NCBI RefSeq assembly: GCF_004010195.1
Contig: NC_057718.1
Span: forward strand, 45,868,322-45,916,182
Origin: Chiloscyllium plagiosum
Taxonomy: Eukaryota
Reading direction: 5' to 3'
Length of the DNA stretch: 47,861 bases
The position numbers were made by a program, and so were the translations under genes. Under the pieces are notes generated by a model, which saw nothing but the letters and a program-made list of their open reading frames with translations, did no database searches and had not been told where the DNA came from. Shown here one piece after another: positions 2,299 to 34,408 of the stretch (within the stretch, counting starts at the first letter, position 1; the number at the start of each line of letters is the position of its first letter).

Positions 2299-2300
2299 CT

Positions 2301-6297: not shown

Positions 6298-6484
6298 GGA
6301 GAAAGTGAGGACTGCTGGAGATCAGAGCTGAAAATGTGTTGCTGGAAAAGCGTAGCAGGTCAGGCAGCATCCAAGGAACAGGAGAATCGCGTTTCGGGCA
6401 TAAGCCCCTCATTCCTGAAGAAGGGCTTATGCCCGAAACGTCGATTCTCCTGTTCCTTGGATGCTGCCTGACCTGCTGCGCTTT
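6298..6484. mobile_element. Short palindromic Penelope-terminus insertion, family A
   Basis: Inverted arms around ~6408. TSD TGATCTAGGA at 6288-6297 and 6488-6497. Confidence 0.9.
6411..6446 (+). ncRNA. Minimal type I hammerhead ribozyme motif (intact core)
   Basis: ATTC-CTGAAGA-A-GGGC ttat GCCC-GAAA-CGTC-GATT: CUGANGA and GAAA cores, 4-bp stem II, palindromic ACGU helix III, GUC cleavage triplet, 3/4-paired stem I. Confidence 0.7.
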
Positions 6485-8993
6485 GCTTGATCTAGGAACC
6501 AATTATTGTCAAGGTAGTGTTTTGTCCTACTGAGAGCCACCCTGAACCATGCATAACTGCCAATGTCAGCTGCAATTGACAGCTACCACGCTTTAATTGA
6601 TCAGCGGCTGTCAGGCATGGGAATTCCACCTCTAGGGTCCTTGATCTCAGGAAAAGCCCTTCACTGGCCATAGAACTGACTGAGGAGCAATAAGTACATT
6701 GGCTTCTCCTCAATGGGGCAGGACAAGGGCTCACACTGCCCTTTCAACCAATGGATGAAACAATGGTTACCTGGGTTCTAACTGCTCAATAGTTGCACAT
6801 TGGCATTGTGGTTTGTTTGAGATGCAACCATTTACTTGTTTTTGAATTTTAAAGCCATTTATAAGATAGGTTTACAAAGCAGTTTTGATATTATAAACTT
6901 GTCGGAGGTTAAGCAGGTTCCATAACAGACAATTTACTTGAGGTACAGTGTCAATAAAATTATTGACAGTTAAAAGATTTCTCCTGATGTGACATGCTGA
7001 CACAAGGCAAAGGCAAAAGGGAGGAACGATTGCTTATGCCAAGACCCTGATGTCCTGGAGTCCCTTGTACAGCTTAATAGCTTGATAGATAGTCTGCTGT
7101 TCACAGTATATCATGAGTCACGCTGAATGGGTGCCTATTCCACTGAGCTCTTAAGAAATAAAGGCAACCATATACTGGATATTTCATCAAAGAAATGAAA
7201 TCAGAAGAAGGTTGTTATAATGAGTCCCAATTTTTCTTACAAGGACTATAAGAATCATTAAAATTATATTTAAAAGATAAATGTCCACCAATTTCAGAAA
7301 TGCAAACAGATTAACAGTATGATTCATCTTTAAAATATGAACTGCAACATGTTTAGAAGACTTACAAAGTACAAGAAACATCTTTGTATTTTTTTAGGAA
7401 ATTACCAAAAGGGCAAATTGATTAAATGTAGCAGGCATTATGATTTCCTTCTGCAAACTAAAGTTCATTTTAAATTCCATTATTTTAAAAGTCTAAAGAT
7501 TAAATGGCTAATGCTTTGTCCTCAGATGACAGGTTTTATAACTTTTTCCATCAATTTTAATGGAAACATTTTGCTGAATTTTATTGGAAAATGAATAATG
7601 AAACATTAGCATTGATTTATTATTGTCTTTGTGAAGTTTACTTAAGGGTCTCTTTGTCCATGGTATTAATCAATAGCCCAACAGATCCATGCTTTTTTAT
7701 TCAGCATGATTTCCCAAGAATAATTGGAAGACATTCCATTTAGGTCATTTTTGGCTCATGTTTATTTGCTGATACAATTAGTCTAAGAAGAGCACTTTTT
7801 AGAAGGAAAGTAAAGGTTAAAGTTTGCTATTGATATTCATCAGGAGATGGATGTTTAATCTTTAATCTCTTGTCCTCAGCCACTACTTTGGATCAACTCA
7901 TTATTTTGAATAAATGATGTGTCATTCCCATTATTTATGTTTCACTGCAGCCAAAGCACTGGTAAAGCATCATTTGTTTGTACCATTCAGTATTAATCTC
8001 CCTGCATCTTTCCTATCCTCATCACTGTCTTTATTTGCTTTCATAGGTTTTCCACATTTTGTTTTTATATGGATAATCTTTGACAAACCAGGCAGAATTG
8101 TGTACCAAACTGGATATCTTGACTATTGTCAATATATCATCAAACTGAAGTATGATTAATACACTGACTGTTGGAACTAGGTCAGGATATGGGCAATTTT
8201 TTTTCTTTTGTATCATTTAAGAATGACTAATGATGCTGGAGTCCTTCAAGATGGATTCTTCTAGCAGATGAGTTAAAGTGTATTTGCAGCACGCTGCAGT
8301 TTCAAAGTCGTAGAAGCTCTCTTGGTTCATAATCCCTGTCCAGATGGACAGCTGTAGGATACTGACAGAGTTTTGCTGATTACAATATTGGCAAAATGCA
8401 ATAACCATATGTCTTTCACTCAATACGTCTACTGATGTTTTAAAACCTTGCATTATTTTCAATAAAGATCTGTAACTGTTTTGTATGGGGAGGATTTAAT
8501 GCCATTTTTGATTTCTACTGTTGTGGAACATTGTAAGATAATACGTCATATCTTTCAATCTATTGCTCATTAAAAATTGAACAAATGATTGAACTTCAGG
8601 ACACACTAGAAGTCCTTATGTGCTGTCCTATGTTTTAACCTTCCTAATTTCAACTTCCAATGAGGAATACCCTAGGACCTTCCACAAACGTCTCTGATTC
8701 TGAACTGGAGTCAGAGACTTGGGACAGTTCTGATGTACTTAGCTGGATTGTTATCAAAAATAGTTAAACAGATTAAAACCTATTCTAACTCCTGGTAATT
8801 CCAGAACTGACCCCCATTCATATGTCCATCAACCCTTCAGACCACCCACCTACCTTCACGACACATGACCCTTTCGCGAGCATCTGATTACACCCCAAAT
8901 CAACTACACCGACAAGACCCCACTAGCTTTGCCAGCAGTCCTGTCTGGCGTCTGAATCTGCTGACTACTGTAATGACCTATCTACCTCTCCCA

Positions 8994-9500
8994 GGAGAAA
9001 GTGATGACTGCAGATGCTGGAGATCAGAGCTGAAAATGTGTTGCTGGAAAAGCGCAGCAGGTCAGGCAGCATCCAAGGAACAGGAGAATCGACGTTTCGG
9101 GCATAATCCCTTCTTCGGGAATGAGGAAAGTGTGTCCAGCAGGCTAAGATAAAAGGTAGGGAGGAGGGACTTGGGGGAGGGGCGTTGGAAATGCGATAGG
9201 TGGAAGGAGGTCAAGGTGAGGGTAATAGGCCAGAGTGGGGTGGGGGCGGAGAGGTCAGGAAGAAAACCTGCAATCTTCTTCCTGACCTCTCCGCCCCCCC
9301 CCCCACTCCGGCCTATCACTCTCACCTTGACCTCCTTCACCTATCGCATTTCCAACGCCCCTCCCCCAAGTCTCTCCTCCCTACCTTTTATCTTAGCCTG
9401 CTGGACACACTTTCCTCATTCCTGAAGAAGGGCTTATGCCCGAAACGTTGATCTCCTGTTCCTTGGATGCTGCCTGACCTGCTGCGCTTTTCCAGCAACA
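8994..9500. mobile_element. Young palindromic Penelope-terminus insertion, family A
   Basis: Near-perfect ~225 bp inverted arms centred near 9272. Exact 15-bp TSD TATCTACCTCTCCCA at 8979-8993 and 9501-9515. Confidence 0.92.
9418..9452 (+). ncRNA. Minimal hammerhead ribozyme motif (intact core, GUU triplet)
   Basis: ATTC-CTGAAGA-A-GGGC ttat GCCC-GAAA-CGTT-GAT. The antisense partner at ~9087-9123 has CCGAAGA (broken core). Confidence 0.62.
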
Positions 9501-9744
9501 TATCTACCTCTCCCAAACTGGTTTGACTACCTCCTTGACCACCTGATTACAGACCAGCCAATCTAACCATTCACCCATCTAATCTTCTACTCATCTACAT
9601 ATTTACCCATCTTACCACCCACTCATCTTTCCCACGTATTTCATCCAATCTACCCCCTCTATCCACTTGTCAACCTTACCCACCTAACCACCTTCTATCA
9701 CAACATTTCACCAAAACTTATGGAATGTAAAATTAAAAGGCTAA

Positions 9745-10245
9745 CAAGGTATTTAGTTTTTTGGCTCGGCCAGCATTTAATGCCCATCCATAATTGCCCT
9801 GAAGAAACTGGTGGTGAGCCATCATCTTGAATTGCTGTAATCCAGTGGGTTGTACTGACACTCCAAATAATGTTAGGAATGGATTTACAGAATTTTGACA
9901 CAGTGACAGCGAAGAATTGTGATTTAGTCACAGGTTAGGATGGTTCATCACTTGGAGGAGAACTTTCAGATGGTGATGTTTGCACGTATCTGCTGCCTTT
10001 TTCACTCTAGGTGGAGAAATCATGGGTTTGCAAGGGGATGTTGAGTTTGGTAATTTACTGCAGTGCTTCTTGTAGATGGTACACACTGCTGCCACTGTGG
10101 GTTAGTGGTGAAGGGAGTGAATGTTGAAGTTGGTGGACGTGGCTGCTTTGTCCGGGATGGTGTCAACCTCCTTGAGTATTGTTGAAGCTGCACTCATTCT
10201 GTTAAACATCTGTGCTTTGTAGATGGTGAATAGGCTTTGGGTTAA
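9745..10245 (-). mobile_element. CR1-like LINE 3' fragment (same family as 13730-15400)
   Basis: Reverse-complement similarity to 14900-15390 (e.g. TTCTTGTAGATGGT vs ACTATCTACAAGATG; GGTGGTGAG vs CTCACCACC). Confidence 0.7.
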
Positions 10246-10942
10246 GACATTTTCATTTATCTTTTAAATATTTAAAACCAAATATCATTATCATTGATGC
10301 ATTCGACATAGAGACTGATAACTTTTAAAAATAGATTTGAAATTGCAATGATAGTAGACATAGAATGTAAATACACAAAAACACAACAGGAAAGATGATC
10401 AAACTATTGCCAATTTGAAGATATCAAGAATTGTTATAGCTCCAAAGAAGAAGCTTATAAAGTTGCCAACAACATTGTGAGCCTGAGGATTGGGAACATA
10501 TTAGAATTCAATAAACCAGGAGTCTTGTGCTCAGTAGCAAGGTTCTTGTCTTGGTATTGAAATCTTGGATAGATAATGTTTTTCAATGTCAAGAATTTAA
10601 TTTTTCAATTCTTCCTATTTTCGTCTTTGTTCTTTCTCCAGCTGATTCATCATTGCCCATGTCATTCAAGGGCTGGGAGAATTCCACCCTTTATGTCTGT
10701 CTTCATGAAGGAAGACACAAATTACTCCCTGAAAAATTAGAGTACCAAAGAACTAATGAGAATGAGAAGCTAAAAAAAATTAAGTTTGTTCAATCATTAA
10801 TAGTGGAAAAAATAATGGGATAGAATGTTGATGAATCCTCTGCACACGATCATCTACATCCCCGATTGTTGAGAGACAGGCCAGTAGAGGTAGTGAATGC
10901 ATTTGAGGTCAACTTTAAAGTTCTGTAGATTCTGCAACTGTT

Positions 10943-11258
10943 TAGATTAGATTAGATTACATTACAGTGTGGAAACAGGCCCTTCGGCCCAACAAGTCCA
11001 CACCAACCCGCCGAAGCGCAACCCACCCATGCCCCTACATTTACCCCTTATCTAACACTACGGGCAATTTAGCATAGCCAATTCACCTGACCTGCACACC
11101 TTTGGACTGTGGGAGGAAACCAGAGCACCTGGAGGAAACCCACGCAGACACGGGGAGAACGTGCAAACTCCACACAGTCAGTCGCCTGAGGTGGGAATTG
11201 AACCCGGGTCTCAAGCGCTGTGAGGCAGCAGTGCTAACCACTGTGCCACCGTGCCGCC
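10943..11258 (-). mobile_element. Full-length, young HE1/V-type SINE
   Basis: Minus strand GGCGGCACGGTGGCACAGTGGTTAGC (A box), GGGTTCAATTCCC (B box), V domain and (AATCT)n tail. CAACTGTT is duplicated at 10935-10942 and 11258-11265. Confidence 0.93.
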
Positions 11259-12189
11259 AACTGTTGTTGCAGATTTGAGGGTACTAAATAGAACCTTACT
11301 ATTTCAGATCTGTTAGTCTGATATCATAGCAGGAATATGCTAGAATCCGTTATAAAGAATATGATAACTAAATACTTAGAAAGTTATGGTCGGATTTTCA
11401 TTCTATTTATCAACTTTGGAGTGTGCTGCCATTCAAGACTTGGAGGTGTACAGCAAGTAGTTCACATGTCCACACTCCCTCATATTACCTGCTGAGTGCA
11501 GCTGCACAAAGTGTTGTCTCTCTCAGGTTAAACACTGTCCCACAGGGATGCTCAAGCACTTCAGGGCAGTTGAGCAGCCTACACCAATTCTGAAACATTG
11601 CAGGGCTACAGATGATGGAAGGGTGAAAAGGAGATTTATCAGGATTCCTCTCAACCTACTGGCTGTCAAGAGAGACTTCATTGCACAACACCCATACATA
11701 ACATGCTGACTGAAGCCTTAAGAACCACCTAATGTTAACACCATGCCACGTTAATGCCCTGTCTCACTGACTACTGCTTTCTCGTTAACAGTCAGCAGGA
11801 CCTGTAAAATAGATACTTGAAAGTGAGGTAACTGACGATACCACACATACAATAACATGGATAGGAACATTTATTCAGCAAAAGAAAGGTTCAAGGACTG
11901 CAAAAGTAATCGGATCCATATATACCTTGGACCGATGTTCAATTTTTGAGGAACTCTCAGTGGTCTGAGCATTATATTTAAAACAAAGCATCCATTACGG
12001 ACAACATTTCAATTGCAACATTTGGCAATCTGACAATTTCTTTGCAATGCATTTATTAATTATTAAAAGTGTACATCTAAATTATATGACAGTTACAAAT
12101 ATTTTACCTGCATTTCTAGAAACTGGTCTCAGCCACAGATTCAAGAAGACTCAAATCCTTCACCAACTTGTCCCAGGTCAAGTTCCGAT

Positions 12190-13229
12190 ACATCCCTCCT
12201 TAAAATTCTCCAAAATGTGGAACATTTCCATTACTTTGGAAGCTACCTGTCATCGAAGGCTGACATTGATGCAGATATTCAACATTGCATCCTAATTGAG
12301 GTCTACAAAATTGTGAGAGGTACAGATTGGGTGGATAGCAAGAAGCTTTTTCCCAGAGTGGGGGACTCAATTACTAAGCATAACGAGTTCAAGGTGAGAG
12401 GGGAAAAGTTTAAGCGAGATATACACGGAAAGTTCTTTATGAAGAGGGTGGTGGATACCTGGAACATGTTGCCAGCAGAGGTCATAGAGGTGAGCACGAT
12501 AGCATCACTTAGGGTTTACCGAGACAAATGCATGAATGGGCAAGCAGCAGAGGAGTACAGATCCTTAGAAAATAGGCGACAGGTTTAGATAGAGGATCTG
12601 GATTAGTGTCGTCTTGGAGGGCTGAAGAGCTGTTCCTGTGCTGTAATTTTCTTTACTGTCTTTGTTCTTTGTCCAGTCTGCAAACGTTGCCTTTGGATAC
12701 CCAAGGAGAAGAGTCATTGACCACCATGATGTATGTGCTGATATCAAGATCCTTGCGTATAATGCAGTTATTCTTCTGACTTTTCTATATGGCTCCAAAA
12801 CATAGACTACGTATAAACGCCTCTTCAAAGGAAGTACCATCAAAGCTGTTTGAGGTAGATTCACTGCACCAATTCAAAGGACAGACATTGGCATCCTTGA
12901 AACAACTAATAGCACCAGCATCAAGGCCATGATTAACAGAAATCAACTCTGCTGGACTGACCGTATGCATAGGATGGCTGACTTCCGGCTGCCAAAGCAA
13001 ATCCTCTTCAGCCAGCTGAAGGAAAGCAGTGAAATGGGAGGAGGTCAAAGGAAGTAGTTCAATGATTCCCTGAAAGCCGCCCTCAAAAAATACAAGTTAG
13101 GTGGCAGTGTGTGGGAGACCATAAATGAGAAGACACCAACTTGAAGGAACGTTCTCTGTGAAGGGACACAACTCTTTGAGAACACCCATTGGCAAGAAAA
13201 AACATGGAAAAGGAATTGGAGAAAGGAAC
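12190..13229 (+). mobile_element. RTE-clade LINE fragment interrupted by a CR1 3' end
   Basis: NVEHFHYFGSYLSSKADIDADIQHCI (12213-12290) continues after 12672 as QSANVAFGY.RRRV... Later come CTGGACTGACCGTATGCATAGGATG and GGAGGTCAAAGGAAG (GGQRK), typical of the RTE C-terminal region. Confidence 0.75.
12291..12671 (+). mobile_element. CR1 LINE 3' end nested in RTE
   Basis: LIEVYKIVRG.D.VDSKKLFP..FF..RVV..WN.LP.EV peptide, followed by a TCTTTGTTCTTTG tail. Confidence 0.88.
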
Positions 13230-13729
13230 NNNNNNNNNNNNNNNNNNNNNNNNNNNNNNNNNNNNNNNNNNNNNNNNNNNNNNNNNNNNNNNNNNNNNNN
13301 NNNNNNNNNNNNNNNNNNNNNNNNNNNNNNNNNNNNNNNNNNNNNNNNNNNNNNNNNNNNNNNNNNNNNNNNNNNNNNNNNNNNNNNNNNNNNNNNNNNN
13401 NNNNNNNNNNNNNNNNNNNNNNNNNNNNNNNNNNNNNNNNNNNNNNNNNNNNNNNNNNNNNNNNNNNNNNNNNNNNNNNNNNNNNNNNNNNNNNNNNNNN
13501 NNNNNNNNNNNNNNNNNNNNNNNNNNNNNNNNNNNNNNNNNNNNNNNNNNNNNNNNNNNNNNNNNNNNNNNNNNNNNNNNNNNNNNNNNNNNNNNNNNNN
13601 NNNNNNNNNNNNNNNNNNNNNNNNNNNNNNNNNNNNNNNNNNNNNNNNNNNNNNNNNNNNNNNNNNNNNNNNNNNNNNNNNNNNNNNNNNNNNNNNNNNN
13701 NNNNNNNNNNNNNNNNNNNNNNNNNNNNN
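13230..13729. other. Assembly gap (500 N)
   Basis: Run of n characters. Confidence 0.99.
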
Positions 13730-15400
13730 AGTCTTCAGCCAATTCAATTAACTCCACATGATATCAAGAAATAGCTGGAGGCACTGGATACTGCAAAGGA
13801 AATGGGGGCTGATATGATTCCAGCAATAGCCAGCTATAGTACTGAAGATTTGTGCTCAACAACTTTTCGCTTTCCTCGTCAAACTGTTCCAGTACAGTTA
13901 CAACACTGGCATCTACCAGACAATGTGGAAAATTGCCCAGGTATGTCCTGTACACAAAAAGCAGGACAAATCTAACCTGGTCAATTACTGCCCCATCAAT
14001 CTCGATCATCAGGAAAGTCATGAAAGGTGTCATCAATGGTGCTATCAAGCAATATCTGCTCAGCAATAACCTGCTCAATGATACCCAGTTTGGGTTCTGC
14101 CAGGGTCACTCAGCCCCTGACCTCATTACAGCCTTTGTTCAAACATGGACAAAACCCAGAGGTGAGCTGAGAGTGACAGCCTTTGACATCAGACCAAATT
14201 TGATCAGATGTGCCATCAAGCAGCCCTAGAAAAAACTGGTTTCAATGAGTATAATGGGGCATACTCTTTGCTAGTTGGGGTCATACCTGGCACGTAGGAA
14301 GATGATTGTGGTTGCTGCAAGTCTGACATCAGATCTCCAAGGCATCTCTGCAAGAGTTCCACAGGATAGTGACCTAGGATGCTTCCTCGATGACCTCCCC
14401 TCCATCATAAGGCCAGAAGTTGGGATGTTCGCTGATGATTGCAAAATTTTCAGCACCATTTGTGACACCTCAGATATTGAAGCAGTCCATGTTCATGTGC
14501 GGGCGGCACGGTGGCACAGTGGTTAGCACTGCTGCCTCACAGTACCTGACACCCGGGTTCAATTCCCGCCTCAGGCGACTGACTGTGTGGAGTTTGCACA
14601 TTCTCCCCTGACAAGTAGCAATTAACACTCACGCCACACAAACAGCTATGACTATCACCAATAAGAGATAATCTAACTACTGCCCCTTGACATTCAATTG
14701 TGTTACCATCAGTGAAACCCTCCCACCAACATCCTCGGGTTTACCATTAACCAGAAAATCAACTGGACTTGCCACATAAACACAGTGGTTAGAAGAGCAG
14801 GTCTAAGGCTAGGAATACTGTGATGAGTAGCTCACTTCCTGAATCCCCAAAGTCTGTCAATCATCTACAAGGGACAAGTCAGCAGTGTGATAGAATATTC
14901 CCCACTTACCTGGATGGGTGCAGCTCTAGCAACGCTCAAGAAACTTGACACTGTTCAGGACAAAGCAAACCATTTCATTGGTACTTCATCCAAAAACATC
15001 CACTCCCTCCATCATCAATGCTCAGTACACATTAATGCTACTATCTACAAGATGCACTGCAGTGATTCACCAAAGATTCTCAGAGAATCCAACGACTCTC
15101 TGAGAATCTCCAAACTCACAACGACTTCCATCTAGAAGGACAAGAGCAGCAGACAGATGGGACCACCTCCACCTGCATGTTCCCCTGTAAGTTACTCACC
15201 ATCTTGACTTGGAAATATATCACTGTTTGTTCATGATTGTTGGGTCAAAACTCTGGAATTCCCTTCCTAAGGGCATTGTGGGACAACCTACAGCATGTGG
15301 ACTGCAGCGGTTAAAGAAGACAACTCACCACCACCTTCTTAGGGCAACTAGGGACAGGCAGTAAATATTGGCCACCAGCAATACCCATATCCCATGAATG
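13730..15400 (+). mobile_element. CR1-like LINE, RT domain to 3' end, degenerate
   Basis: Peptides QFGFCQGHSAPDLITAFVQTW, VPQDSDLG, MFADDCKIF, MIEYSPLTWMGA; 3' end ATCCCATGAATGAA. Confidence 0.85.
14501..14608 (+). mobile_element. 5' part of an HE1/V-type SINE (3'-truncated)
   Basis: GGGCGGCACGGTGGCACAGTGGTTAGC..GGGTTCAATTCCCGCC..TTCTCCCC, nearly identical to the head of 10943-11258. Confidence 0.9.
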
Positions 15401-16545: not shown

Positions 16546-16879
16546 AGTGTGTAGTTGGGAGATAGAAGGAACCATGTGGTAATTATTTCAGAGAAGCACA
16601 TATGTATTTATTTTTCAACCATTGAAAACTTAAAATTCTCTTCTCCCACCCCCCTATAAGTTCTATTGCTGCTATTAGACAAACCCCTGTCCTCTTAGTG
16701 CTTGCTGATGGAAAAGATCCTTGCTTCAGCCATTTGGTCAAGACCATACAAACATAGGAATTTTTCTCCTACAATTTTAATAAAAAAATTCAGGCAGGGT
16801 GTCTAGTGAAACATAAAGTCCTTCAACTACTTTCATCGACCAACTGGAAGGAAGCATGGAGAAGCAACAGCGAAAAAAA

Positions 16880-18929: not shown

Positions 18930-19220
18930 ACATTTCACAGGAGCAATATGAAACAAAGGATGGCACTGAGCCACTTCAGTAGATATTAGTTCAGATGATC
19001 AAAAGCTTGATCAATTACAAAGGTCTTCGGGAGTGTTCTTAAAGTGAGGAGAGGGGAGGGAGAGCTTTTGGAAGAGTTATCTTCCAGCGTTTGGGCTTAT
19101 GCAATGATGGCAAGACCACCAATAGCTGAATAATTAAAATTGAAGTGCAGAAGCAGCTAGCTTTAGAGAAGTGCTGATATCTTGGAGGGTTGTGGGTGGG
19201 AGAAGATTATAAAGAAAGGG
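18930..19220 (-). mobile_element. Old L2-type 3' tail fragment
   Basis: GATGATCAAAAGCTTG..GGTCTTCGGGAGTGTTCTTAAAG..TTCCAGCGTTTGGG resembles the reverse of an L2 3' end. Confidence 0.45.
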
Positions 19221-19221
19221 T

Positions 19222-19807
19222 TTGGAGTTGCTGGTGTTGGACTGGGGTGTACAAAGTTAAAAATCACACAACACCAGGTTATAGTCCACAGGTTTAATTG
19301 GAAGCACTAGCTTTTGGAGCGCTGCTCCTTCATCAGGTGGTTGTGGAGTACATAATTGTAAGACACAGAATTTATAGCAAAAGTTTACAGTGTGATGTAA
19401 CTGAAATTATACATTGAAAAATACCTTGATTGTTTGTTAAGTCTCTCATCTGTTAGAATGACCATGATAGTTTCACTTCTTTCATATGTAAATCACAAAA
19501 TCTTTTTTAAAAAGTTACATTCTCAGGTTAACTGTAACAATTGATGTCAGTGCAAATAAGATGTTGAGATGTTGGAGGTGTTAGCCCCCTATGTTCCCTG
19601 TCTGTGCCATAATGTTTAGTCTGATTCTAAAGTAAAAAGTGAGTTAACAGAGTCCATTTAAGTTTTGTGATTTACATATGAAAGAAGTGAAACTATCATG
19701 GTCATTCTAACAGATGAGAGACTTAACAAACAATCAAGGTATTTTTCAATGTATCATTTTAGTTACATCACACTGTAAACTTTTGCTATAAATTCTGTGT
19801 CTTACAA
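19222..19807. mobile_element. Penelope-terminus insertion, family C, with 145-bp inverted arms
   Basis: 19356-19500 and 19663-19807 are near-perfect reverse complements. A hammerhead-like motif lies on the minus strand at 19305-19339. Confidence 0.75.
19305..19339 (-). ncRNA. Minimal hammerhead motif, family C (G12 decayed)
   Basis: CAC-CTGATGA-A-GGAGC agc GCTCC-aAAA-GCTA-GTG. The second copy at 20173-20188 keeps GCTCC-GAAA-GCTA-GTG. Confidence 0.6.
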
Positions 19808-20143: not shown

Positions 20144-20242
20144 TGATTCGGAGATGCCGGTGTTGGATTGATGCTCCGAAAGCTAGTGTGCTTCCAATTA
20201 AACCTGTTGGACTATAACCTGGTGTTGTGTGATTTTTAACTT
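20144..20242. mobile_element. Tiny inverted family C Penelope-terminus insertion
   Basis: GGAGATGCCGGTGTTGGA head followed by the reverse complement of ~19252-19320. TSD TGCTTATTATACA at 20131-20143 and 20243-20255. Confidence 0.8.
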
Positions 20243-21215
20243 TGCTTATTATACACATGGCTGGACGAGAGAACATAATTGTCGACACATTGTCGCGACT
20301 TTGATAAAGGAATGTGGTGGCTTTTGGTGGTAGGAAGAAAAATGGACTGACAAGGTAGCACACTTAGAATCAATGCAAGGTTTGTGTATTGTATTGTACA
20401 AGTGTAAGACTAAAGGTTTTTAAAAATGAAGCCATTTTGTTTATTGAGGGTTCTTGTTTTTAAGGGGCTAGGTGTGGCAATACTATGGCTTTAAGAGGTG
20501 TATTTTGTCCTTTTCTTTACAAAGAAAGATTGAGACAGAGATGCTCAAAGTCAATAAAATAAACAGCTTGAGAGGCCTTGGGTTTTTTTTAAAGTTGGAA
20601 CAATAGAAACAGTTTGGGGTTTTCTTTTTACAGCTAGAATTGCATGTACAACAATTTATTTTACTGAGTTTGCCTTTGCCAAGAGTGTGTTTATGAGTTG
20701 TTACTATATTGGAACAGTTAATTATTAGTAGTTAATCTCTTAGTTATTCTGTTAAGCATTTTGATAGAGTTGCAGTTCAGTTGATTCTTTATTGTTTAAT
20801 TTGTATTTTAATTGTAGTGTAAAAATAACTTTTTGCTTAAATTTGATAGTTTTACCAATTGATTTGCATCTGGAATGCAACACCTTACACTTTAAAATAA
20901 GAAAAAATTAGGGTCTGGAATGCCTTCTTAATATATTTTGAGTGGGTAAAAACAAAAACTGCAGTTGCTGGAAACCAGATTCTGGATGAGAGTGGTGTTG
21001 GAAAAGCACAGCAGTTCAGGCAGCATCCGAGGCGCAGGAAAATCGACGTTTTGGGCAAAAGCCCTTCATCAGGAATAGCGCCTCTATTCCTGATGAAGGG
21101 CTTTTGCCCAAAATGTCAATTTTCCTGCTCCTTGGATGCTGCCTGAACTGCTGTGCTTTTCCAGCACCACTCTAATCCAGAATATATTTTGAGTGGGTTT
21201 GGTCTGAACCAAACA
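20242..21215 (+). mobile_element. 3' end of a Gypsy (Gmr1-like) LTR retrotransposon: RNase H C-terminus, PPT, 3' LTR (20473-21215)
   Basis: LLIIHMAGRENIIVDTLSRL* (20242-20304) matches the I.H..G.EN..AD.LSR motif. The purine tract TAAGGGGCTAGG precedes TG at 20473. The LTR ends ..AACA, and its 3' end is homologous to 33452 onward in reverse. Confidence 0.7.
20948..21180. mobile_element. Palindromic Penelope-terminus insertion, family A variant, nested in the LTR
   Basis: Inverted arms with a spacer of only a few nt near 21080. Exact 18-bp TSD AATATATTTTGAGTGGGT at 20930-20947 and 21181-21198. Confidence 0.92.
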
Positions 21216-23680: not shown

Positions 23681-23693
23681 CCTAGTTCATATA

Positions 23694-23820
23694 AGAGAAA
23701 GTGAGTACTGCAGATGCTGGAGATCAGAGTCAAGAGTGTGGTGTTGGAAAAGCACAGCAGGTCAGGCAGCATCTGAGGAGCAGGAGAATCGACGTTTTAC
23801 ACATGAGGCCGTCATCAGGA
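23694..23820 (-). mobile_element. Single Penelope terminus, family A
   Basis: AGAGAAAGTGAGTACTGCAGATGCTGG..GAATCGACGTTTT..TCATCAGGA; imperfect flanking repeat CTAGTTCATATAA / CTAGTTGAAATAA. Confidence 0.8.
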
Positions 23821-23954: not shown

Positions 23955-24092
23955 AAAAAAAACAAAAGAACCATGGATGCTGTAAATTAGAAACAAAAAC
24001 AGAAATTGCTGGAAAACCTCAGCAGCCTGGTAGTATTTGTGGAGAAAAATCAGACTTAACGTTTCAGGTCTAGTGACTCTTCTTCAGAACTG
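23955..24092 (-). mobile_element. Single Penelope terminus, family B, with hammerhead core
   Basis: Minus strand AGTT-CTGAAGA-A-GAGTC acta GACCT-GAAA-CGTT-AAGT, followed by ..TTTCCAGCAATTTCTGTTTTTG. Confidence 0.75.
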
Positions 24093-24122
24093 AACTTATT
24101 AGATAGCTGTAATTCAATTTCA

Positions 24123-25060
24123 AATCATTACCTTTGAGGTATTGGAAAGACTTTGGAAAAATGGGGTGAAAGTTGCTCATGGGAAAATACTCAGTCTATG
24201 AGCCACCATTGTAGCTACATTATTTAAGCAGCTAGTCATTTTAGTTTTTGGTCAATAGTTCACAATGCCAACTATATATGCAGCAAACTAATGGCTGGGG
24301 TTGTAGTGTTAATAGCTGAGTGACATGAGCTTGAGAATTATTTCTGTTGGTTTTAAGTAATTTAGTTAAAATATTATATAGTGTAGTGTGGATATGGACT
24401 AGGGGTTTGAGAACAGATTCACAATTCTATCTTCCAGTTTTTCCTATGATTATTCATTTTCTGGACAAGGCTACATTTTAAGCTCTGCAGCAGTTATTGT
24501 CCAGTCCTGGATGCTCTCCAAATGTGGTGGTGAACCAACCTCCAAAACCATTGAGGTTTAGATAATGAACATAACCCAATGTATTGTTAGACAGGGAGTT
24601 CCTGTGTTTTGATCCAGCAATTATGAAAGAATGATAAATGTCCAAGTTACAATGATGCGTGACTCAGGTGGGAACAAGAAAATGATGGTGTTCCAAATGC
24701 CTGTTGCCCATTTCCTTCCAGGTGAAAGAGGTTGCAGATTTGGAAGATGGTGCCAAAATATTCTTGGTAAATTATTACAGTGGGGACTGAATTCTTAGCA
24801 TTGATAATGAAGGGCCACTGAGACAGATTACTTTGTCTCAGTTGGAATCAGGCTTCTGGAGCAATTATGGAGTGGCACCCATCCAGGAAAGGAGATAGTA
24901 TTTCATCATAGTTCCAATCATTACCTTTGAGGTATTGGAAAGACTTTGGAAAAATGGGGTGAAAGTTGCTCATGGGAAAATACTCAGTCTATGAGCCACC
25001 ATTGTAGCTACATTATTTAAGCAGCTAGTCATTTTAGTTTTTGGTCAATAGTTCACAATG
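24123..25060 (+). repeat. Exact 145-bp direct repeat (24123-24267 and 24916-25060)
   Basis: AATCATTACCTTTGAGG...ATAGTTCACAATG is present twice with no visible mismatch. Confidence 0.95.
24470..24782 (-). mobile_element. Old CR1-like LINE 3' end
   Basis: Similar to 9770-10060 (GTGGTGGTGAAC.., CAGGGAGTTCC..TTTTGATCCAGC, TCCAAGT, GATGGTGTTCC). Confidence 0.6.
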
Positions 25061-25419
25061 TCAATAGTGGATGATTCATCAGTGATGCCATTAGCCCTGT
25101 TTCTGAAGTGGCACATTTGGGAGAGTCTATCTACTGTTGAATGTGATTGGATATCATCTCCAGTTTGTGTGCAATAAGTCTGTTATACCCATCAAAAAAC
25201 AATAGAGTGACCTTGTTGATCGCAGGAAATATTGTATTATCACAACTCAGATCATTAGCTGCTCTGAAATACAGTACCATAAGGAAACATTGAAACCATG
25301 AGACCTCATATTGGAGATGTGGGCAGTAAGTGAATAAATGATGTCTTTACTGAGACAGCTCCTTAGCTGATCTTAATGACTAAGCCAAGAGTCATATAAC
25401 GTGTTCTTTCACCTTGTAA

Positions 25420-25537
25420 TATTTCTTAATGAACCTGCTCAGAAATATTTTGCCAAAGCTTTGGAGCATGTTGGATTTGAACTGGCACCTCCTGACCCGG
25501 AGGGAAGGACACTACCAATGCACCACGAAACCCCTTT
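25420..25537 (-). mobile_element. ~115 bp tRNA-derived mini-SINE (same family as 17245-17366)
   Basis: Minus strand GGGGTTTCGTGGTGCATTGGTAG..GTTCAAATCC..CTGAGCAGGTT. TSD TTCACCTTGTA at 25408-25418 and 25540-25550. Confidence 0.75.
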
Positions 25538-26689: not shown

Positions 26690-27112
26690 ATCCATTCCCC
26701 TCATTTCTGTTCTCACTCCTTCCCCTCCCTTTTGTCCTTGCTTTCGATTTCACCAGTCTCCACTTTTAAAACATCATCCTCTGCCATTCCCAAAAACTCT
26801 AACAAGATGCCACAACCAAAAATGTCTTACCCTCCCCTCCAAATCATCCTTCTGCAAGGACTGTTCCCTCCATGACATCCAGTCCACTCTGCTATCACTC
26901 CTTACACTTCCTCGCTCCCCCTTCTATGGCACCTATATGTAAACGTTCCCTTTAACTTCCTACCTTTTTATTGTTTGAGGCTGCAAACACACCTTCAAGG
27001 ATTTCACAGCATTTAATGGTATGTTTTTCAATCTGTTCAACTTGAAATATTAACCGTTTCTTTCTCTGCAGATGCTGCCAGAGTTTCTCCAGCATTTTCT
27101 GTTTTATTACAG
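26690..27112 (+). mobile_element. Degenerate Penelope fragment (post-RT linker) plus terminus
   Basis: CATCATCCTCTGCCATT..GATGCCACAACCAAA..CTTCTGCAAGGACTGTTCCCTCCATGAC parallels 32880-32980; ends CAGATGCTGCCAGA..CCAGCATTTTCTG. Confidence 0.6.
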
Positions 27113-27577
27113 CAAACTAACTGGCTTCTGTGCATGCAGTTTGATAACCCACAGCAGGCTAACTGCCTGAAAGAATTACAATATTGAATACACACAACAT
27201 ATTTAATGGTGACTTCATTTACAGGCATGATACACACAATGCATTGGGTAAATTCTATGTGTAAGATTTTCAGTAAGTTAGCCCATTTTTAAGGCATCAC
27301 TTCAAACCGAAGCCTGAGCTGTTGTTAAACATTTTGAGCTGCATCTTTGGCATTTTTTTATTATGGAGCAAGTTTCCAGGTTTTAATCTAAAATTGCTTT
27401 TTTATTGCAGATCACAATGCTTTCACCAGTCATCTATATTGTTTAGTTGTTGATAATACAATGGCTCCTAGTATCTGTGGGAAGTCATACTTAATCATAA
27501 TTGTCAAGGAGAATTTTCATTGGTAAGTGTAGTCATTAGCTCTGAAATTTGTACAAAGTCTCAACAAAAATATTTTA

Positions 27578-27719
27578 AAGTTAAAACAAACTCTGGTGGC
27601 TCACTCTGCAACAGTTCATATTTCTCCACTAAAAATAATTAACGTCCAAGTTAAAACAAACTCTGGTGGCTCACTCTGCAACAGTTCATATTTCTCCACT
27701 AAAAATAATTAATGTCCAA
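27578..27719 (+). repeat. Tandem duplication, 70-bp unit x2
   Basis: AAGTTAAAACAAACTCTGGTGG...AATTAA(C/T)GTCC repeated with one mismatch. Confidence 0.95.
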
Positions 27720-28793
27720 ACTATTTGTGTTTGTTACAAATTAACCTTGTCATTGGGGAATTGTTGTATATGTTGAAGTAACGTGCATGGTTCCCTGTCT
27801 CTCATAATGTAAAAATACAGCTTTGTATACAACACCGTTTTTGTGGTATATATATCGCATTCAAATGTTTTGTTTGCATTTCTTCCCTTTCTTTCTCCTC
27901 CTTATATTATCTCTCATTTTTGATTATTACATGTAATTAGTAATGTAATATTGACTGAATTTTCTCTGCTACATGCTCATATATAGGTACGTTCGTGCAT
28001 TTTTAATATTTTTGTTTATATTTGTACAAAGAGTTTGCAAAGTACTGGTTTCTTCAGTTATGCAGATGATTACTGTAGTAAGAGTATCGCGAGTCTAATA
28101 TCTATGAAAGATACTTAGGCTTTTTCTCATTACCTTTTATTGTCATTACTCTGCTGCAATATTGTAGCACTTGTGATACCTTGTGATTTCTTTTCTGCTT
28201 GTAAGTGTTTCCTGTCAGTAGTGCACATATGAAACTAGCTTTGTTCACAATACAAGAGAAGGTGGACCTGCTTAAATGCATGAGTCATGAGAATTGGTAA
28301 ACTGCCTCCAAATATGAAGTATAATGGAGATATAAATAAACTGAAGAAGAAATTTTGAAAGTTCAAACTGTAAATGACAAGGAGTGGGTTTGATTGTTCA
28401 AATATGCATTCTTATTAAATACTTCTGTGTTCTTAGTATTCAACACAGTGCTCAGTATGTCACAATATAATGTCAATCTACTCCTATATTTTCACGCTTC
28501 AGCTAACTCTTGTTCACATAACAATCATTTATCATTTCCAACTTGTTCTTTAGTTACAAGAGGTCTGAAAATACATGTGGCCTCCCCACCCCCAGTTTTA
28601 ACCTCCACAATATTGGCCACTCACGCCCCTACCTCTCTCCTTATCGACTTCTTTCCTTCCACCCTCATCAATTCAAAAACCAGTTTCATAAATTCTCTTC
28701 TCACTAATCCCCTCCCCCTCACCACAACCACCTCCACACATCAGACCTATCCATCACAATGTGTGCGTAAAACCCATGCAAAGGCATGCAGAA

Positions 28794-29053
28794 TCACTAC
28801 GGCAGTCTTCTCCCAAATTCACTGACTCCTATATCAGCTATGTCAACTGTCAGATCTTAGCATTCAACCACACAACCCAAGTCACATCCCTTATTTCTCT
28901 GACTACTGATTACTGTATCTCCTCACTACGGCAGTCTTCTCCCAAATTCACTGACTCCTATATCACAGCTATGTCAACTGTCAGATCTTAGCATTCAACC
29001 ACACAACCCAAGTCACATCCCTCATTTCTCTGACTACTGATTACTGTATCTCC
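28794..29053 (+). repeat. Tandem duplication, ~129-bp unit x2
   Basis: TCACTACGGCAGTCTTCTCCC...TACTGTATCTCC repeated; the copies differ by a 2-bp indel and one substitution. Confidence 0.95.
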
Positions 29054-29426
29054 TCTACTATCTCCGTTTTACATTTGCAACTGGTCTTTGCATGATTATG
29101 CACGTCTGCTGGAACACCTTTCCTTGTGTCTTTCTTGCTGTCAAGAGGTGTCCACATTGTCCCTCTAAAATGCTATGCATTATTCTTTCTTATGCAAGGA
29201 ATATGAACTATATGAAATATAAACATATTTAACAATTAAGAACTCATAGAGTAAGATATAAAGAAGTAGACAAAACTAAACCAATACAAGTACTTTTAAA
29301 CCACATGTAATCAGCATAGTTACTTTCTTAAAAGCTGTAAAATTGAAGAAAACTAATGTACCAACAGCAAAACTCTAGAGATAGATCCACTGTATCTCAA
29401 ACCAGTTGTGTTCAGTGTGTTTGAAA

Positions 29427-29548
29427 GCAGAAGCTGGCTGTTCACTGGTAAACAAAACAGAAGTTGTATGAAATAAGCTTGTTCCATTTTGTTGGATTAC
29501 GTTGAAGGCAGTGAATGTTTTGTTTACCAGTGAACAGCCAGCTTCTGC
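29427..29548. repeat. Perfect 33-bp inverted repeat with 56-nt spacer
   Basis: GCAGAAGCTGGCTGTTCACTGGTAAACAAAACA (29427-29459) and its exact reverse complement (29516-29548). Confidence 0.95.
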
Positions 29549-30099
29549 AAACGATTCACATAATATAAAACAAAGTGTGATTGCTGCACCTGATTGAAAC
29601 TGCAGTGATATTGGTTTTAATTTTACTACATGTTAAAAAGAAATGCCATTCTCTGCATATATATTATAAAAGACAAATTACTCACAATTCATGTCTATCT
29701 GTTTCTGGAGTACTTAATTGATGTTGCTGTTAATTCAGTCAAACATTGGAGCATTTGTTTTATGTAACCAATATTATAATTGTTTACAGGCTGCTATGTT
29801 TTGATTTTTTTTGGCAAATTTTCAATAATTCTGTACTGCAAATTTGCTGAACTACAATGGCACATCAGACCAATGTCAAATATATCTGATCATGTTGAAG
29901 CTGCACTTCTTTATTAGAAGTGCTCATTTTTATTCAAATACATATGAGAGGTGATTTTTTTTTTCTGTGTTTTTTTGGTCATGCATTTTTGGTTAATATT
30001 TTCTGATTTGTGATAGTTATGTGAACAGGTGTTAAAGCCAACACTCTATTATTTAATCTCTCACTGATTTTGCGATGCACAATTGCCGAACATAAAGCA

Positions 30100-30603
30100 G
30101 AACATAGAGTCATAGAGATGTACAACACAGAAACAGACCCTTCGGTCCAACCCGTTCATGCCGACCAGATATCCCAATCCAATCTAGTCCCACCTGTCAG
30201 CACCTGGCCCATATCCCTCCAAACCCTTCCTATTCATATTCCCACCCAAATGTCTTTTAAATGTTGCAATTGTAACAGCCTCCACCACTTCCTCTGGCAG
30301 CTCATTCCATACATGTACCACCCTCTGCGTGAAACAGTTGCCCTGTAGGTCTCTTTTATATCTTTCCCTTCTCACCCTAAACCTATGCCCTCTAGTTCTG
30401 GACTCCCCCACCACAGGGAAAAGACTTTGTCTATTTATCCTATCCATGTCCCTCCTTTGTTCAGCAACACTCCCTAGGACCTTACCATTAAGTGTATAAG
30501 TCCTGCTAAGATTTGCTTTCCCAAAATGCAGCACCTCGCATTTATCCGAATTAAACTCCATCTGCCACTTCTCAGCCCATTGGCCCATCTGGTCAAGATC
30601 CAT
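30100..30603 (-). mobile_element. CR1 LINE 3' end with internal deletion
   Basis: ORF 30184-30603 joins WAEKWQMEFNSDKCEVLHFG..EQR directly to DMDRINRQSLFP..TRGH..WNELP, skipping the usual intervening region; CATAGAGTCATAGAG tail. Confidence 0.9.
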
Positions 30604-30604
30604 T

Positions 30605-30691
30605 CTGAAAAGAAAACAGTAGATCTGACAGCATCTGCAGAGAAAGAATCAGCATTAATATTTCAAATCAAATAGAAATCTTCTTCAGAAT
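30605..30691 (-). mobile_element. Degenerate Penelope terminus, family B
   Basis: GATCTGACAGCATCTGCAGAGA..TTAATATTTC..TCTTCTTCAGAA. Confidence 0.6.
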
Positions 30692-32109
30692 CGTGCTTAA
30701 CTTCACAGATCACTGCCTTGCAACTCACTCCAAAAGGGTACAATGAATTCTTCCAAAGTTTGCAGATTGTGTCACTAATCTATACTTTAAGATGATTTTG
30801 GTGCCAGTAAGCTGATGGCTACAAGTGTACAAGATAGTACTTGATCATCATTCTTTTCTTGGTTTTCTTTCTCTGCTTGGCCAGTTTTAACCGCTTGGAT
30901 ACCTGAAAGTGGTGTATTAAGCAAGGGACAGTTCAAGAGGTGCTTGCTAGCATCATCTGCACCCCATAAATCAGAATAGATAGTGTTACTGAAGGAGAGA
31001 TGGCTATGAGGAAGAGGCTTAGAGATGAGGATTGGTTTGATGGTTCAGTTTCTGCTTGGACCAGGATTTCTCTACTATGAAGACAGAATGACTACTGCCT
31101 GGTAATTGGGGATAGATGTACAGGATGCTAGATAATGTGAACATCGATGAAATCATAGTCCTTGTAGTTCATGAAGGCATATCTTCTGTTTGCTGTGGCT
31201 TTTGAGCCATGTGATTGCTAGTAATAATGTTACAAGATGCAGGTAAGCCCATTCTCTCATATTGTTGACCTAGACCAGTGGGAAAGGAAATCATTTCCTT
31301 ATCTTCATGCAGATTGTAGAGTTACGTTGCATTGAACTGCACCAGTTTACTCCTTGAATGGTTGAATCAACGTTAAAGAGTTATGATAAGTGTGAGATTT
31401 GTGACTTTGATGTATTTGGAAGTCCTGGTCATCTTCAAAATAATATATATTGTATAGAGTAAGGTTTCCATATTACAAATAACCAAGAATGGACCTGCTG
31501 AAATGGAAATTTTGCAACAAGCTTATTCAATGGCAAAGCAAACTTGAGGGACCTTATGCCTCGATTTCTTTGTGTTCATTTCTTCTTTTGAAACTCCAAC
31601 AGTTGTCACAAACTGTCTGGAGAGTCAAGGTATGATTTTAATTTCTATGACATTGAAACAGACTGTTCAACCCAACCACCTAGTGTTGGTGTTAATCCTC
31701 CAGATGAGCAGTAATCCTCATACCATGTAGTTGCATCAATCCCTTATCCTTTATCAGCTCTCAGTTTTTTAATGATATCTCTTTTTAATTAGGAACTTCA
31801 GCAAAAACATTCCACTGCCTCTTTGTAAATCAGTTCTTTTGCTCTCTATCTTAAATCTCTTGCATTTAATTTTACATTGCTTTCCACCAAGTCTGAACCC
31901 CCACAGAATTGCCAAAACAAAAATAATATCAATTGTCCTTTATTTTGGACTCAAAAAATTGATTTGAAAAAGGCAGCAATCTAATTTCAGTTTATGCTTA
32001 GTGATTTATAATGACAACTTTATTAAGTTCACAAAGTTGACTTTATATGTCTGCCTTGATCTGGCACACATAAGTACTCCTCTGATCTTAAATTAAAGCA
32101 ATGGGTTCA

Positions 32110-34408
32110 CTGTGAAAAGATGCTTCTTCTGACTGAATTTCCAGTTTGTGGTACCGGCCACCACCTCTTCATCATGGATGTGCGATCTCACAGGTCTGTC
32201 CCCCATCCGGGAGGTCTCATTTCTTCCTGGGTAAAAGGTCTGAACTGTCCCCGTCCAACACCATCCTCCCTGCCAGACCAAACTCATTCTCACTTTGAAC
32301 AAATTCTCCTTTAACTCCTGTCACTTTCTTCAAATCTAGGTGTGACCATAGGCACCCACATGGGCCCCAGTAATGTCTGTCGCTTTATGGGAAATGTGGA
32401 AACATTCCTTGTTCCAGTCCTACTCCGATCCTTCCCACAACTCTCACTCTGGTATATTGATTACTTCCCCCTCTTGTCCAGAATTGGGAAAATTTATCAA
32501 TTTCACTTCCAATTTCTGCCCTACTCTCACCTTTACCTAGCCCATCTCTAACTTCTCCCTTCCCTTCCTTGATATCTTTGCTTTTATTTCTGAGGATAGA
32601 TTGGCCATTGATATCCTTTATAACCCACAAGCTCCCAGACTATAACCTTCACATTCTGCCTCCTGTAAGGACTCCATTCCATTGTCCTAGCTTCTCCGTC
32701 TCTGTTCTGACAATAACTCTTTCCACAGGGAGCTTCAGAAATGTGCACCTTGTTCCTCAATCGAGGATTCCCTACCACCATGGCTGACAGGGCCCTCAGT
32801 CATTTCTGATCCATTTCATGCACTTCTGCCCTCACCCCTTCTCATTGATAGGGTCTCCCTGGTACTCACCTACCATCCCGCCAGTATCCACATTCAATGA
32901 ATCAGACGCATGTTCCCCGCCACTCCTTTGTCAGCCTTCTGCAGGGACCAGGTCATCCAGGATACTTTAGTGCAGTCCACCTCCACTTCCAAACCTGCCT
33001 ACACACCCCCAGCACCCTCCCATACGCTCACAGAGGCTGCCGGTTTACTTCTTCCCTCCTTACTATCCAAGGCCCCAGACATGTCTTCCAGGTGAAGCAG
33101 TGATTTACCTGAACTTCCCTCAATCTAATCTATTGTATTCGCTGCTCACAATGTGGTCCCCTCTACATTGGGAAGACAAAACATCTTGCGGAACACAAAT
33201 TTCCTATTCTCAAAAGTGACTGTGAGCTTCTGGCTGATGGCCACTTCAACGCACCACTATGTTCCCAGCTAAAATGTCTATCTCTGGCCTGCTGCAGTGT
33301 CACCCAGCACAAATTACAAGAACAGCATTTCCTTTTCCGTTTGCGAATCGTGTAGCCTTCAGGGCTCAATGTCGTGTTCAATAATTTTAAGGCCTAAACA
33401 CTTTCTTCCAAGTCCTTTCCCACTGCATACCTGAGACCCTCTCATCAAATGTGTTATGGACTAAGCCAGATCACTCAAAATATTTTTAAGCAGGCAGCCC
33501 CAGACTATAACTTTGCAATTTGTTTTGGTAAGTTTATAGTGAAAATTACCCAGATTAAGTTAGCTAGGTTTGACTACTAGATTTTAAAACAGACAAAACT
33601 TTATTCACAAAATTACACAATGAAACAAAATAAAGAACCCCTACAGAACTCAGCCTATCCAACTCGACTTAATTATGCTGTTTCAAATATACACAACAGT
33701 CCCAATAGCAAACTCTCTTTAAAACCAGTATAAATAGAACACATGCTTACAGGTTGAAGTTGAAGGGTAGAAAGAGAGAGTGAGTTTCCACACAGTTCCC
33801 TGCTGAACTTGTCAATTCAAGACTAAACTAAAAACTGCTCAGCTCAGCTAGAGAGCTGACCACTCCCCTTTCATTATATAGGTCACTTCTAAAACATGAC
33901 CACTTTGGCCTGAAGTGTCATCTGTTTACATATAAACAAAAGGCCTCTCAAAATCCTTTTAGTCTCTGTACCAAACCAGAGTGATAGGAGCCCGGCCCGG
34001 TTTATTGCCCCTCTGAAAAATAATTCAAGGACAGAGTCACCTTGAGCCAAGGAACAGCTTTTAGCAAAAAAAGGGACTAGTTTTGTTAAATGTGGACTGC
34101 TTTCAGCAGAGCCAAACCATTTTCTACTACTATAATCCCCATAAGCAGCTCCTCTTTCTCCTCGTGGTACCATTATTCATCCCCTTGTCTGCTTAACTGT
34201 CTCTCTCTCCCTCTGGCCCCATCTCCACCTTTAAGTACTCCTTTACTATTACCACCCCACCCCTCCCCCACCTGTCTTCAGCATATATATACACCATATA
34301 TACTAGCTACTACTAGTTCTGAAGAAGGGTCACTAGATCCAAAATATCAACTCTGCTTTGTCTCCACAGATGCTGCCAGACCTGCTGCGTTTCTCTAGAA
34401 ACGTCTGT
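32110..34408 (+). mobile_element. Decayed autonomous-type Penelope-like element (RT + GIY-YIG endonuclease + ribozyme-bearing terminus), split by an LTR
   Basis: GVTIGTHMGPSNVCRFMG (from 32339) and WYIDY RT motifs; PLSAFCRD linker; NLIYCIRCSQCGPLYIGKTK (33122-33181) GIY-YIG; terminus AGTT-CTGAAGA-A-GGGTC acta GATCC-aAAA-TATC-AACT (34315-34352). Confidence 0.88.
33452..34090 (-). mobile_element. Solo LTR (related to the LTR at 20473-21215)
   Basis: Begins TGTTATGGAC..CACTCAAAATATTTTTAAG..CCAGAC, the reverse complement of the LTR 3' end near 20910-20947/21199-21215. It interrupts the Penelope 3' region; possible TSD AATG. Confidence 0.65.

Follow-up and report, generated by a model that had tools for sequence, protein, structure and literature searches.

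Hammerhead motifs at the ends of Penelope-like elements in Chiloscyllium plagiosum: copy junctions suggest an uncut, capped RNA as insertion template

How did the short, hammerhead-like repeat ends in the genome of the shark Chiloscyllium plagiosum arise, and does RNA cleavage have a part in it? The question is raised by a stretch of 47,861 nucleotides (RefSeq assembly GCF_004010195.1, contig NC_057718.1, positions 45,868,322 to 45,916,182 of the forward strand; in the following, the window), in which an initial annotation made from the sequence alone had described three co-varying families, A, B and C, of minimal hammerhead ribozymes (min-HHRs) in Penelope termini. The coordinates given there do hold hammerhead-like sequence, and the architecture was described correctly. 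The analysis presented here suggests, with a probability of about 0.7, that these motifs are decaying hammerheads from the pseudo-long terminal repeats (pLTRs) of Penelope-like elements (PLEs), and that most copies stem from an uncut, capped transcript beginning with the hammerhead, within which reverse transcription started some 90 or 125 nt from the front. As a ribozyme discovery this adds little, since motifs of this kind, with their extra nucleotide and palindrome, were already published in 2014. One detail is new: many copies begin at the front edge of the ribozyme with an extra G, which likely derives from uncut capped RNA.

For the analysis of the motif itself, positions were numbered relative to the hammerhead nucleotide C3, negative values lying upstream and positive values downstream. 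A structure-only descriptor was run on 1,069,624 unselected bases plus the window, and three first-order Markov simulations served as control. It yielded 76 matches, 56 of them with a stem I of at least 2 bp, and none in any of the three simulated sets. The motifs are real minimal hammerhead ribozyme motifs, far above chance. An extra nucleotide separating position 9 from 10.1 is present in 55 of these 56 matches and a palindromic helix III in 41. When the genome (3.56 Gb) was searched for exact cores, 35,210 family A, 17,799 family C and, with a narrow pattern, 78 family B cores were found, the reversed-pattern controls for all three giving no match genome-wide. Sampling of 1,116,985 bases gave 182 A, 71 B and 93 C end fragments. 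This density of about 300 per Mb corresponds to about 1.1 million when scaled to the genome and makes the latter a large natural data set of Penelope insertion junctions.

The individual features of the min-HHR were all recovered. The core C3UGANGA9 ... G12AAA15.1 with U16.1 and H17 is intact in the copies at 6411 and 9418. The G10.1-C11.1 pair is accompanied by a compensating stem II (GGGC/GCCC in A, GGGUC/GACCC in B and GGAGC/GCUCC in C). The palindrome 15.2-16.2 without loop III reads ACGU in 142/173 A and 32/40 B copies and AGCU in 75/79 C copies, these loci being partly core-selected, and stem I is a short pairing of 2-4 bp that is compensated between families, with a U.U third pair in A. 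Judged by all testable sequence features, the hammerheads would thus be further members of the published PLE min-HHR kind. A comparison with Rfam models returned no hammerhead among 61 matches at E<=10, which is expected since the motifs are without helix III. The microRNA matches of the same scan at 9161-9380 were rejected: they correspond to a palindrome, and their scores lie under the gathering thresholds.

The proposal that these are Penelope-type hammerheads in pLTR ends was borne out by reverse transcriptase (RT) and GIY-YIG endonuclease pieces upstream of them, which place the motifs in the pLTRs of three very abundant PLE families. At the locus L114, two direct family C hammerheads 2,517 nt apart flank a frameshifted open reading frame (ORF) with DKG, GTAMG and YVDD motifs, an ATG 121 nt below C3 and a weak RVT_1 match (E 0.0044). 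Family A copies have RT pieces upstream (tblastn E 1e-18) and a GIY-YIG match (PF01541) just above the Pfam cut-off. In family C, a cysteine linker and a YIGET piece lie upstream of the hammerhead of L182, and the endonuclease-like piece upstream in family B is 51% identical (18/35) to the A piece by BLASTP only. Pfam gave no match for the B and C endonuclease pieces, nor for the A RT piece of L162. The order of RT followed by GIY-YIG in one ORF above the pLTR was accordingly seen in pieces only. Direct or inverted pLTRs with a tail of 30-40 nt are represented by the direct pair of L114, by inverted pairs and by two 3' peaks about 35 nt apart. Inspection by eye showed a cysteine linker (CX2-5CxxC) between RT and endonuclease in L161 (A), L167 and L168 (B) and L182 (C); in the wording of this motif given for the Neptune clade in PMC8557442, it points to that clade. 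Among the copies examined, no A or B copy runs past the tail into a shared ORF start. Same-strand core pairs about 3 kb apart were considered as whole elements and rejected, being mostly independent insertions; of 20 such stretches only L114 is near full-length. Divergent A pairs 3-4 kb apart (L117, L118, L129) enclose stretches that are open in six frames, likely assembly gaps at long palindromes. The ends of families A and C are often inserted into or beside each other's tails (L124, L063, L316).

The positions at which the copies begin and end were then compared with those expected for a cut template. 5' ends lie between -15 and +14 in 111/182 A, 36/93 C and 33/71 B copies, and between -50 and -16 in 8, 4 and 3 copies, respectively; the remainder reach further up or start further down. 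By a conservative measure, this pile-up at the 5' edge has p values of 8e-35, 9e-9 and 2e-8 (A, C, B). A cut template would predict starts at G1.1 (+28 to +30), where the copies do not begin. Only 16 of the 346 sampled copies start at the cut site (+25 to +32), namely 6/182 A, 4/93 C and 6/71 B, and cleavage-made 5' ends were rejected as the main class. Cross-matching to related tails probably accounts for some of the C matches at +33 to +65. An inverted copy adjoins 67 of the 111 A starts between -15 and +14, the pair at 6347-6484 being an example. In families A and C, the 3' ends form two peaks, at +87-90 and +122-126. Long-tail C copies (L297, L299, L301, L303, L305 and others) often end at or just after the ORF ATG.

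At this 5' edge an excess of G was found. Among exact A copies whose junction base is not the C of the element, 3,398 of 5,653 have a G before the A at -4, the genome expectation being 25%. Base splits were counted by eye in sets of 100 from the first contigs. One base further in, the family A control shows G in 13/100 among the matches listed; in family C, again among the matches listed, G precedes the A at -8 in 67/100 as compared to 29/100 at -4 (p 1e-7), and the matches listed for the older family B give a G:A ratio of 35:24 (p 0.005). The flanks of the G-bearing A copies are unrelated sequence or inverted arms, not one subfamily. Thirty A loci with the G comprised 18 inverted copies, 9 solo copies and 3 that were called long by the script and that are, by eye, insertions into other repeats. 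A plainly untemplated G occurs in only some copies, e.g. L269 and L278. The extra G at the 5' junctions of full-length L1 copies reflects capping. A cap-derived G in Penelope elements was not found in the open-licence PMC and bioRxiv literature, and the literature search gave nothing pertinent on shark pLTRs.

In families A, B and C, promoter-like boxes lie about 30 nt above the A at -4 (A, B) or -8 (C), as read against the standard initiator and TATA consensus sequences and the spacing between them. Long family A copies carry a TTATCT box in 85/97 cases, 63 of them at -34, and an initiator-like TCATTC in 65/97. For long family B copies the corresponding numbers are 6/8 for TCAGTT and 5/8 for a TATA-like box, and long family C copies have CCAC in 36/48 and TATAAA in 31/48, mostly at -38 to -40. 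The position-specific G, the promoter spacing and the few starts at the cut site together provide genomic, in vivo support for an uncut capped template.

RNA reads were taken from X21, a poly(A) single-cell RNA run of which about 2% was read, with reads pooled over many element copies. Family A received 1,385 reads on both strands and L114 3,218 reads. Over the L114 hammerhead the depth by strand is 1,253 vs 242, and coverage extends 200 nt upstream. Uncut sense poly(A) RNA running through the family C motif does exist. Poly(T) was present in 499 reads at +60 and in 407 at +57, below an A(A/T)TAAA signal. The family C pLTR contains a used poly(A) site (L114:5931-5934; minus strand of the window, 19293-19298); it follows the predicted cut by about 30 nt and precedes both reverse-transcription starts, a position that gives an LTR-like R region containing the hammerhead. 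With the poly(A) site at +57/+60 above these starts, long copies would need read-through tandem RNA. Over the ORF of L114 the depth is 0-6, so that element-driven full-length RNA is not shown by X21. The run is no test of cutting, since a 3' cut product of about 30 nt would not survive in such a library. There was no sign of cutting at 6442 or 9449 in copy ends or RNA reads, though short cut products would escape those libraries.

The course of events that we favor would be as follows. A pLTR promoter with a box at the TATA position would direct RNA polymerase II to start at an initiator A that lies 4 nt above C3 in families A and B and 8 nt above it in C. The element protein would begin cDNA internally at two sites in the tail, as has been shown for the anole element PAc. 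cDNAs started in the 5' pLTR would reach the cap after about 95-135 nt and run off there, with a C added opposite it; microhomology would let the cDNA end pair with the target or another cDNA, yielding solo and head-to-head copies. Microhomology to a cDNA ending in C would select G-bearing sites. The less frequent long copies, truncated at random, would stem from starts in a downstream pLTR. The ribozyme is likely to be slow and to need either a partner RNA, through the helix III palindrome, or protein; it would act on the mRNA pool rather than make the insertion template, its cleavage taking off the cap together with about 32 nt upstream of the ORF start. The more specific statement that in these Neptune-like elements the hammerhead forms the first ~35 nt of the capped transcript, and that short copies in their hundreds of thousands represent cDNAs that ran off at the cap and carry a cap-derived G, we regard as somewhat better than an even bet. 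If it is true, the genome records uncut RNA as the insertion template, and the ribozyme would be a decapping switch above the ORF, not a template processor.

A number of observations weigh against a capped, hammerhead-first template. The start peak is broad: 14,325 of the 35,210 exact A cores fall short of -4, 4,682 A copies match to -5 but not to -8, and 10,550 reach -8. The signal in family B is weak, T being the commonest base (41/100 among the matches listed). The G is also found in the duplicated target of many solo copies or in the arm of many inverted copies, and target preference or tailing by the RT could contribute to the excess. The TTATCT box of family A is a non-canonical TATA. 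By eye, copies of a fourth family, D, mostly run upstream past their own hammerhead. X21 is linked to this genome by species label and likeness only, it shows no pile of read ends on family A or L114 and hence maps no transcription start, and a transcript that extends 200 nt upstream does not have its start at the hammerhead. Finally, an intact A or B element was not found.

Some of these points could also be explained by a longer RNA on whose hammerhead, folded or bound by protein, RT stalls or switches template; endonuclease site preference or non-templated addition would then supply the G. The width of the end zone (about 30 nt), the roughly 60% of A ends within it that join an inverted copy (67/111), the frequent match of the G to target or arm and the existence of RNA running through the region would all be in line with stalling. 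However, the ends are found on the fold's far (5') edge instead of at the point of RT entry, the G excess is fixed at -4 (A) and -8 (C) in different contexts and absent at control positions, and the promoter-like boxes lie 30 nt above this position. We therefore consider stalling unlikely.

Markedly less probable still is the model of the initial annotation and of Cervera and De la Peña, according to which hammerhead dimers cleave a precursor at H17 and insertion uses the cut RNA, or a circle, as its template. Core, extra nucleotide and palindrome are kept across families, so cutting is probably selected in active elements, and dimer cleavage has been reported in print. A dimer helix III is also plausible in folding predictions, scoring -18.9 kcal/mol together with stems II, but the minimum-energy dimer (-21.9 kcal/mol) pairs in a shifted register. 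As a route to the copies analyzed here, a cut template is already disfavored by the scarcity of starts at the cut site and by 3' ends 60-100 nt beyond it; in addition, PAc inserts unprocessed RNA and gave no reads ending at the cut. That the motifs belong to independent non-autonomous retrozyme- or SINE-like (short interspersed nuclear element) families without link to a PLE ORF might be suggested by the predominance of non-coding copies of 90-135 nt, some with target duplications; since longer copies join the same ends to RT and GIY-YIG pieces and no head-to-tail hammerhead arrays appeared in the self-comparison of the window, this scarcely credible reading is largely refuted already. That the copies at 6411 and 9418 are working ribozymes maintained by the host is very improbable despite their intact cores, as 35,210 identical cores exist and intactness therefore reflects youth, decay is neutral, and both copies are buried in long palindromes, that at 9418 without some of its stem I pairs.

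Covariation was evaluated on 306 descriptor matches over all loci, the choice of loci having been guided in part by core pattern. At pair 2.1-1.1, family A has C-G (152/173), B has U-A (27/40), C again has C-G (71/79) and D has A-U (5/6), pair 2.2-1.2 is U-A in A and B, A-U in C and C-G in D, and helix III changes from ACGU in A and B to AGCU in C. The compensatory change claimed for the three families, including that of the palindrome, is real between families, but it represents 3-4 independent lineages and not hundreds of events. The reading of ATTC/GATT as a full stem I in family A did not hold, because the third pair 2.3-1.3 is U.U in 132/173 A copies. In an A subfamily with GAAT replacing GATT (L110, L168, L208), stem I is again a perfect pairing of 4 bp. 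As extra nucleotide, families A-C have A, and U occurs in 5/6 copies of family D, which has a longer stem II and comprises 23 copies among the matches listed (L029:119, L163, L168:7467, L171 and others). Upstream of the D hammerhead in L168 lies a YIGQTG-like piece, which we take to be Poseidon-like.

The statement that most copies have lost G12 applies to the window, where 8 of 13 hand-listed whole-core copies lack it, but not to the sample, in which 166/220 copies keep it (101/133 A, 26/31 B, 39/56 C). G12 is changed to A in 32/133 A copies vs 24/132 and 20/133 at the next two CpG guanines, and in family C it is lost in 16/56 copies vs 13/56 at the loop CpG. The copies decay neutrally, G12 behaving like other CpGs. 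Selection on G12 in the genomic copies was ruled out, as its loss rates are similar to those of neighbouring CpGs.

The relation to known systems was assessed from parts of the papers cited. Cervera and De la Peña (2014; PMC4209133) count a nucleotide separating 9 from 10.1 among the general features of min-HHRs, and their alignment contains the same extra A in pufferfish, cichlid and coelacanth. Together with the U of family D this speaks against the extra A being a lineage variant, as had been suggested. The motifs share with these min-HHRs the type I core, the extra nucleotide, G10.1-C11.1, the palindromic 15.2-16.2 without loop III and the short stem I, as well as the occurrence of several co-varying families per genome, mostly as solo copies, and of opposite-strand pairs. 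Stem II differs, having 4-5 bp here, and the 35,210 exact A cores and the about 1.1 million end fragments obtained by scaling compare with about 4,000 (coelacanth) and about 9,000 (Xenopus) descriptor matches, although the measures are different. As regards the obligate dimers hypothesized in the initial annotation, min-HHR monomers were inactive and dimers weak in that work. It proposes cut RNA as the template, whereas the copy ends here argue for uncut RNA. The term shark was not found in its supplement file 2. Lünse et al. (PMC5785218) reported PLE hammerhead variants with a short palindromic stem III like that found here and with dimer cleavage, as summarized in a review (PMC6765202), and may already list similar motifs.

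The closest functional comparison is PAc, Poseidon of Anolis carolinensis (Frangieh et al. 2024, PMC11167929). Its ribozyme cut only with the element protein, and cutting was not needed for insertion. As in the elements described here, the hammerhead lies in the pLTR near the ORF start, and two internal RT starts give the tail, like the two 3' peaks. Unprocessed RNA is the insertion substrate, and both target strands are extended, which fits the head-to-head pairs. In PAc the ORF begins within stem II, in family C with an ATG at +121, and unlike PAc the families here have a cysteine linker before GIY-YIG (Neptune-like). The sections of that paper considered here map no transcription start and mention no cap-derived G. 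In Drosophila virilis Penelope (Schostak et al. 2008, PMC2377424), an internal RNA polymerase II promoter with an initiator lies in the pLTR and the hammerhead in the 5' leader, which is similar. That promoter is TATA-less, and transcription starts 46 nt ahead of an intron of 75 nt that at its end adjoins helix I; in contrast, the start proposed here would lie at stem I itself, and no intron was seen. Non-LTR retrozymes (Li et al. 2026, 10.64898/2026.07.22.740005) contain type I hammerheads from PLE pLTRs, one chondrichthyan case being reported. They form tandem arrays, while the copies here are dispersed, solo or inverted, and ORF-linked; the head-to-tail tandem units without ORF that define a retrozyme were not found. 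The role of hammerheads in endonuclease-bearing Penelope elements has been called unclear (PMC8557442).

The copies and associated motifs within the window are collected in Table 1. The hammerhead at 6411-6446 reads ATTC CUGAAGA A GGGC UUAU GCCC GAAACGU C GAUU, its stem I consisting of 2 bp, the U.U and 1 bp. It belongs to a pair joined at the hammerhead 5' edge, with a long tail on the left arm. The cores at 6411 and 9418 had been called intact, and this is correct for both; in the latter copy, however, C17 is replaced and a 1-nt loss leaves only 2 bp of stem I. An initiator-like TCATTC motif is located at 9416-9421. The left-arm hammerhead of the corresponding pair (C3 at 9118, minus strand) has U4>C. 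The sequence at 20173-20188, previously listed as a family C hammerhead, proved to be part of a fragment.

Table 1. Hammerhead copies, element pairs and associated motifs in the window (positions count from its first nucleotide)
Feature	Position	Strand	Remarks
Head-to-head pair, longer older A-subfamily copies	2296..2920	both	C3 at 2426 minus and 2833 plus; both G12>A
Head-to-head element pair	3074..3262	both	
Head-to-head pair of short A copies	6297..6484	both	palindrome 6347-6484, 93%
Family A hammerhead	6411..6446	+	core intact; predicted cut 6442/6443; initiator-like A at 6411
Head-to-head pair of longer A copies	8993..9503	both	palindrome 9036-9503, 94%
TTATCT box	9388..9393	+	34 nt above C3; motif at TATA position, putative function
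Family A hammerhead	9418..9453	+	core intact; U17 instead of C17
Further family B copy	844..937	+	G12 kept, stem II decayed; absent from the initial annotation
Family C 3' segment and tail	19219..19304	-	end near second reverse-transcription start (about +120)
ATTAAA poly(A) signal	19293..19298	-	just below family C hammerhead
Family C hammerhead	19305..19339	-	G12>A; stem I CAC/GUG; helix III AGCU
TATAAAT box	19370..19376	-	40 nt above C3 of C copy; putative start A at 19344
Family C fragment	20173..20244	+	begins within stem II; without CUGAUGA and stem II 5' arm; incomplete hammerhead
Head-to-head A-subfamily pair	20945..21183	both	element pair at 20979-21183; G12>A in both
Solo A-type copy, decayed	23682..23820	-	starts 2 nt above C3
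Family B hammerhead relic	24054..24091	-	G12 kept; C11.1>T; stem I mismatch; copy start 6 nt above C3
Family B hammerhead relic	34315..34352	+	G12>A; helix III decayed to ATAT; stem I AGTT/AACT
Head-to-head A pair	40851..41069	both	element pair at 40885-41069; right arm C3 at 40973, G12>A

At least six head-to-head element pairs are thus present in the 48-kb window, and read-through RNA would form long double strands. For such RNA, hairpins of -129 kcal/mol (138-nt palindrome) and -468 kcal/mol (468-nt palindrome) were predicted. Since they are buried within these long hairpin-forming palindromes, the copies at 6411 and 9418 are unlikely to be functional in place, and the copies in the window are likely inert.

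Apart from the hammerheads, the window shows recent local duplications with identities of 97-99% (24119-24271 / 24912-25064; 28794-29060; and the sequence upstream of the family C hammerhead, an inverted 145-nt repeat at 19356-19500 / 19663-19807). A gap of 500 N bases extends from 13230 to 13729. A broken long interspersed nuclear element (LINE) on the minus strand at 45387-47218, which is unrelated to the hammerheads, contains apurinic/apyrimidinic (AP) endonuclease pieces (PF14529, PF03372) and an RT (PF00078, E 3e-26).

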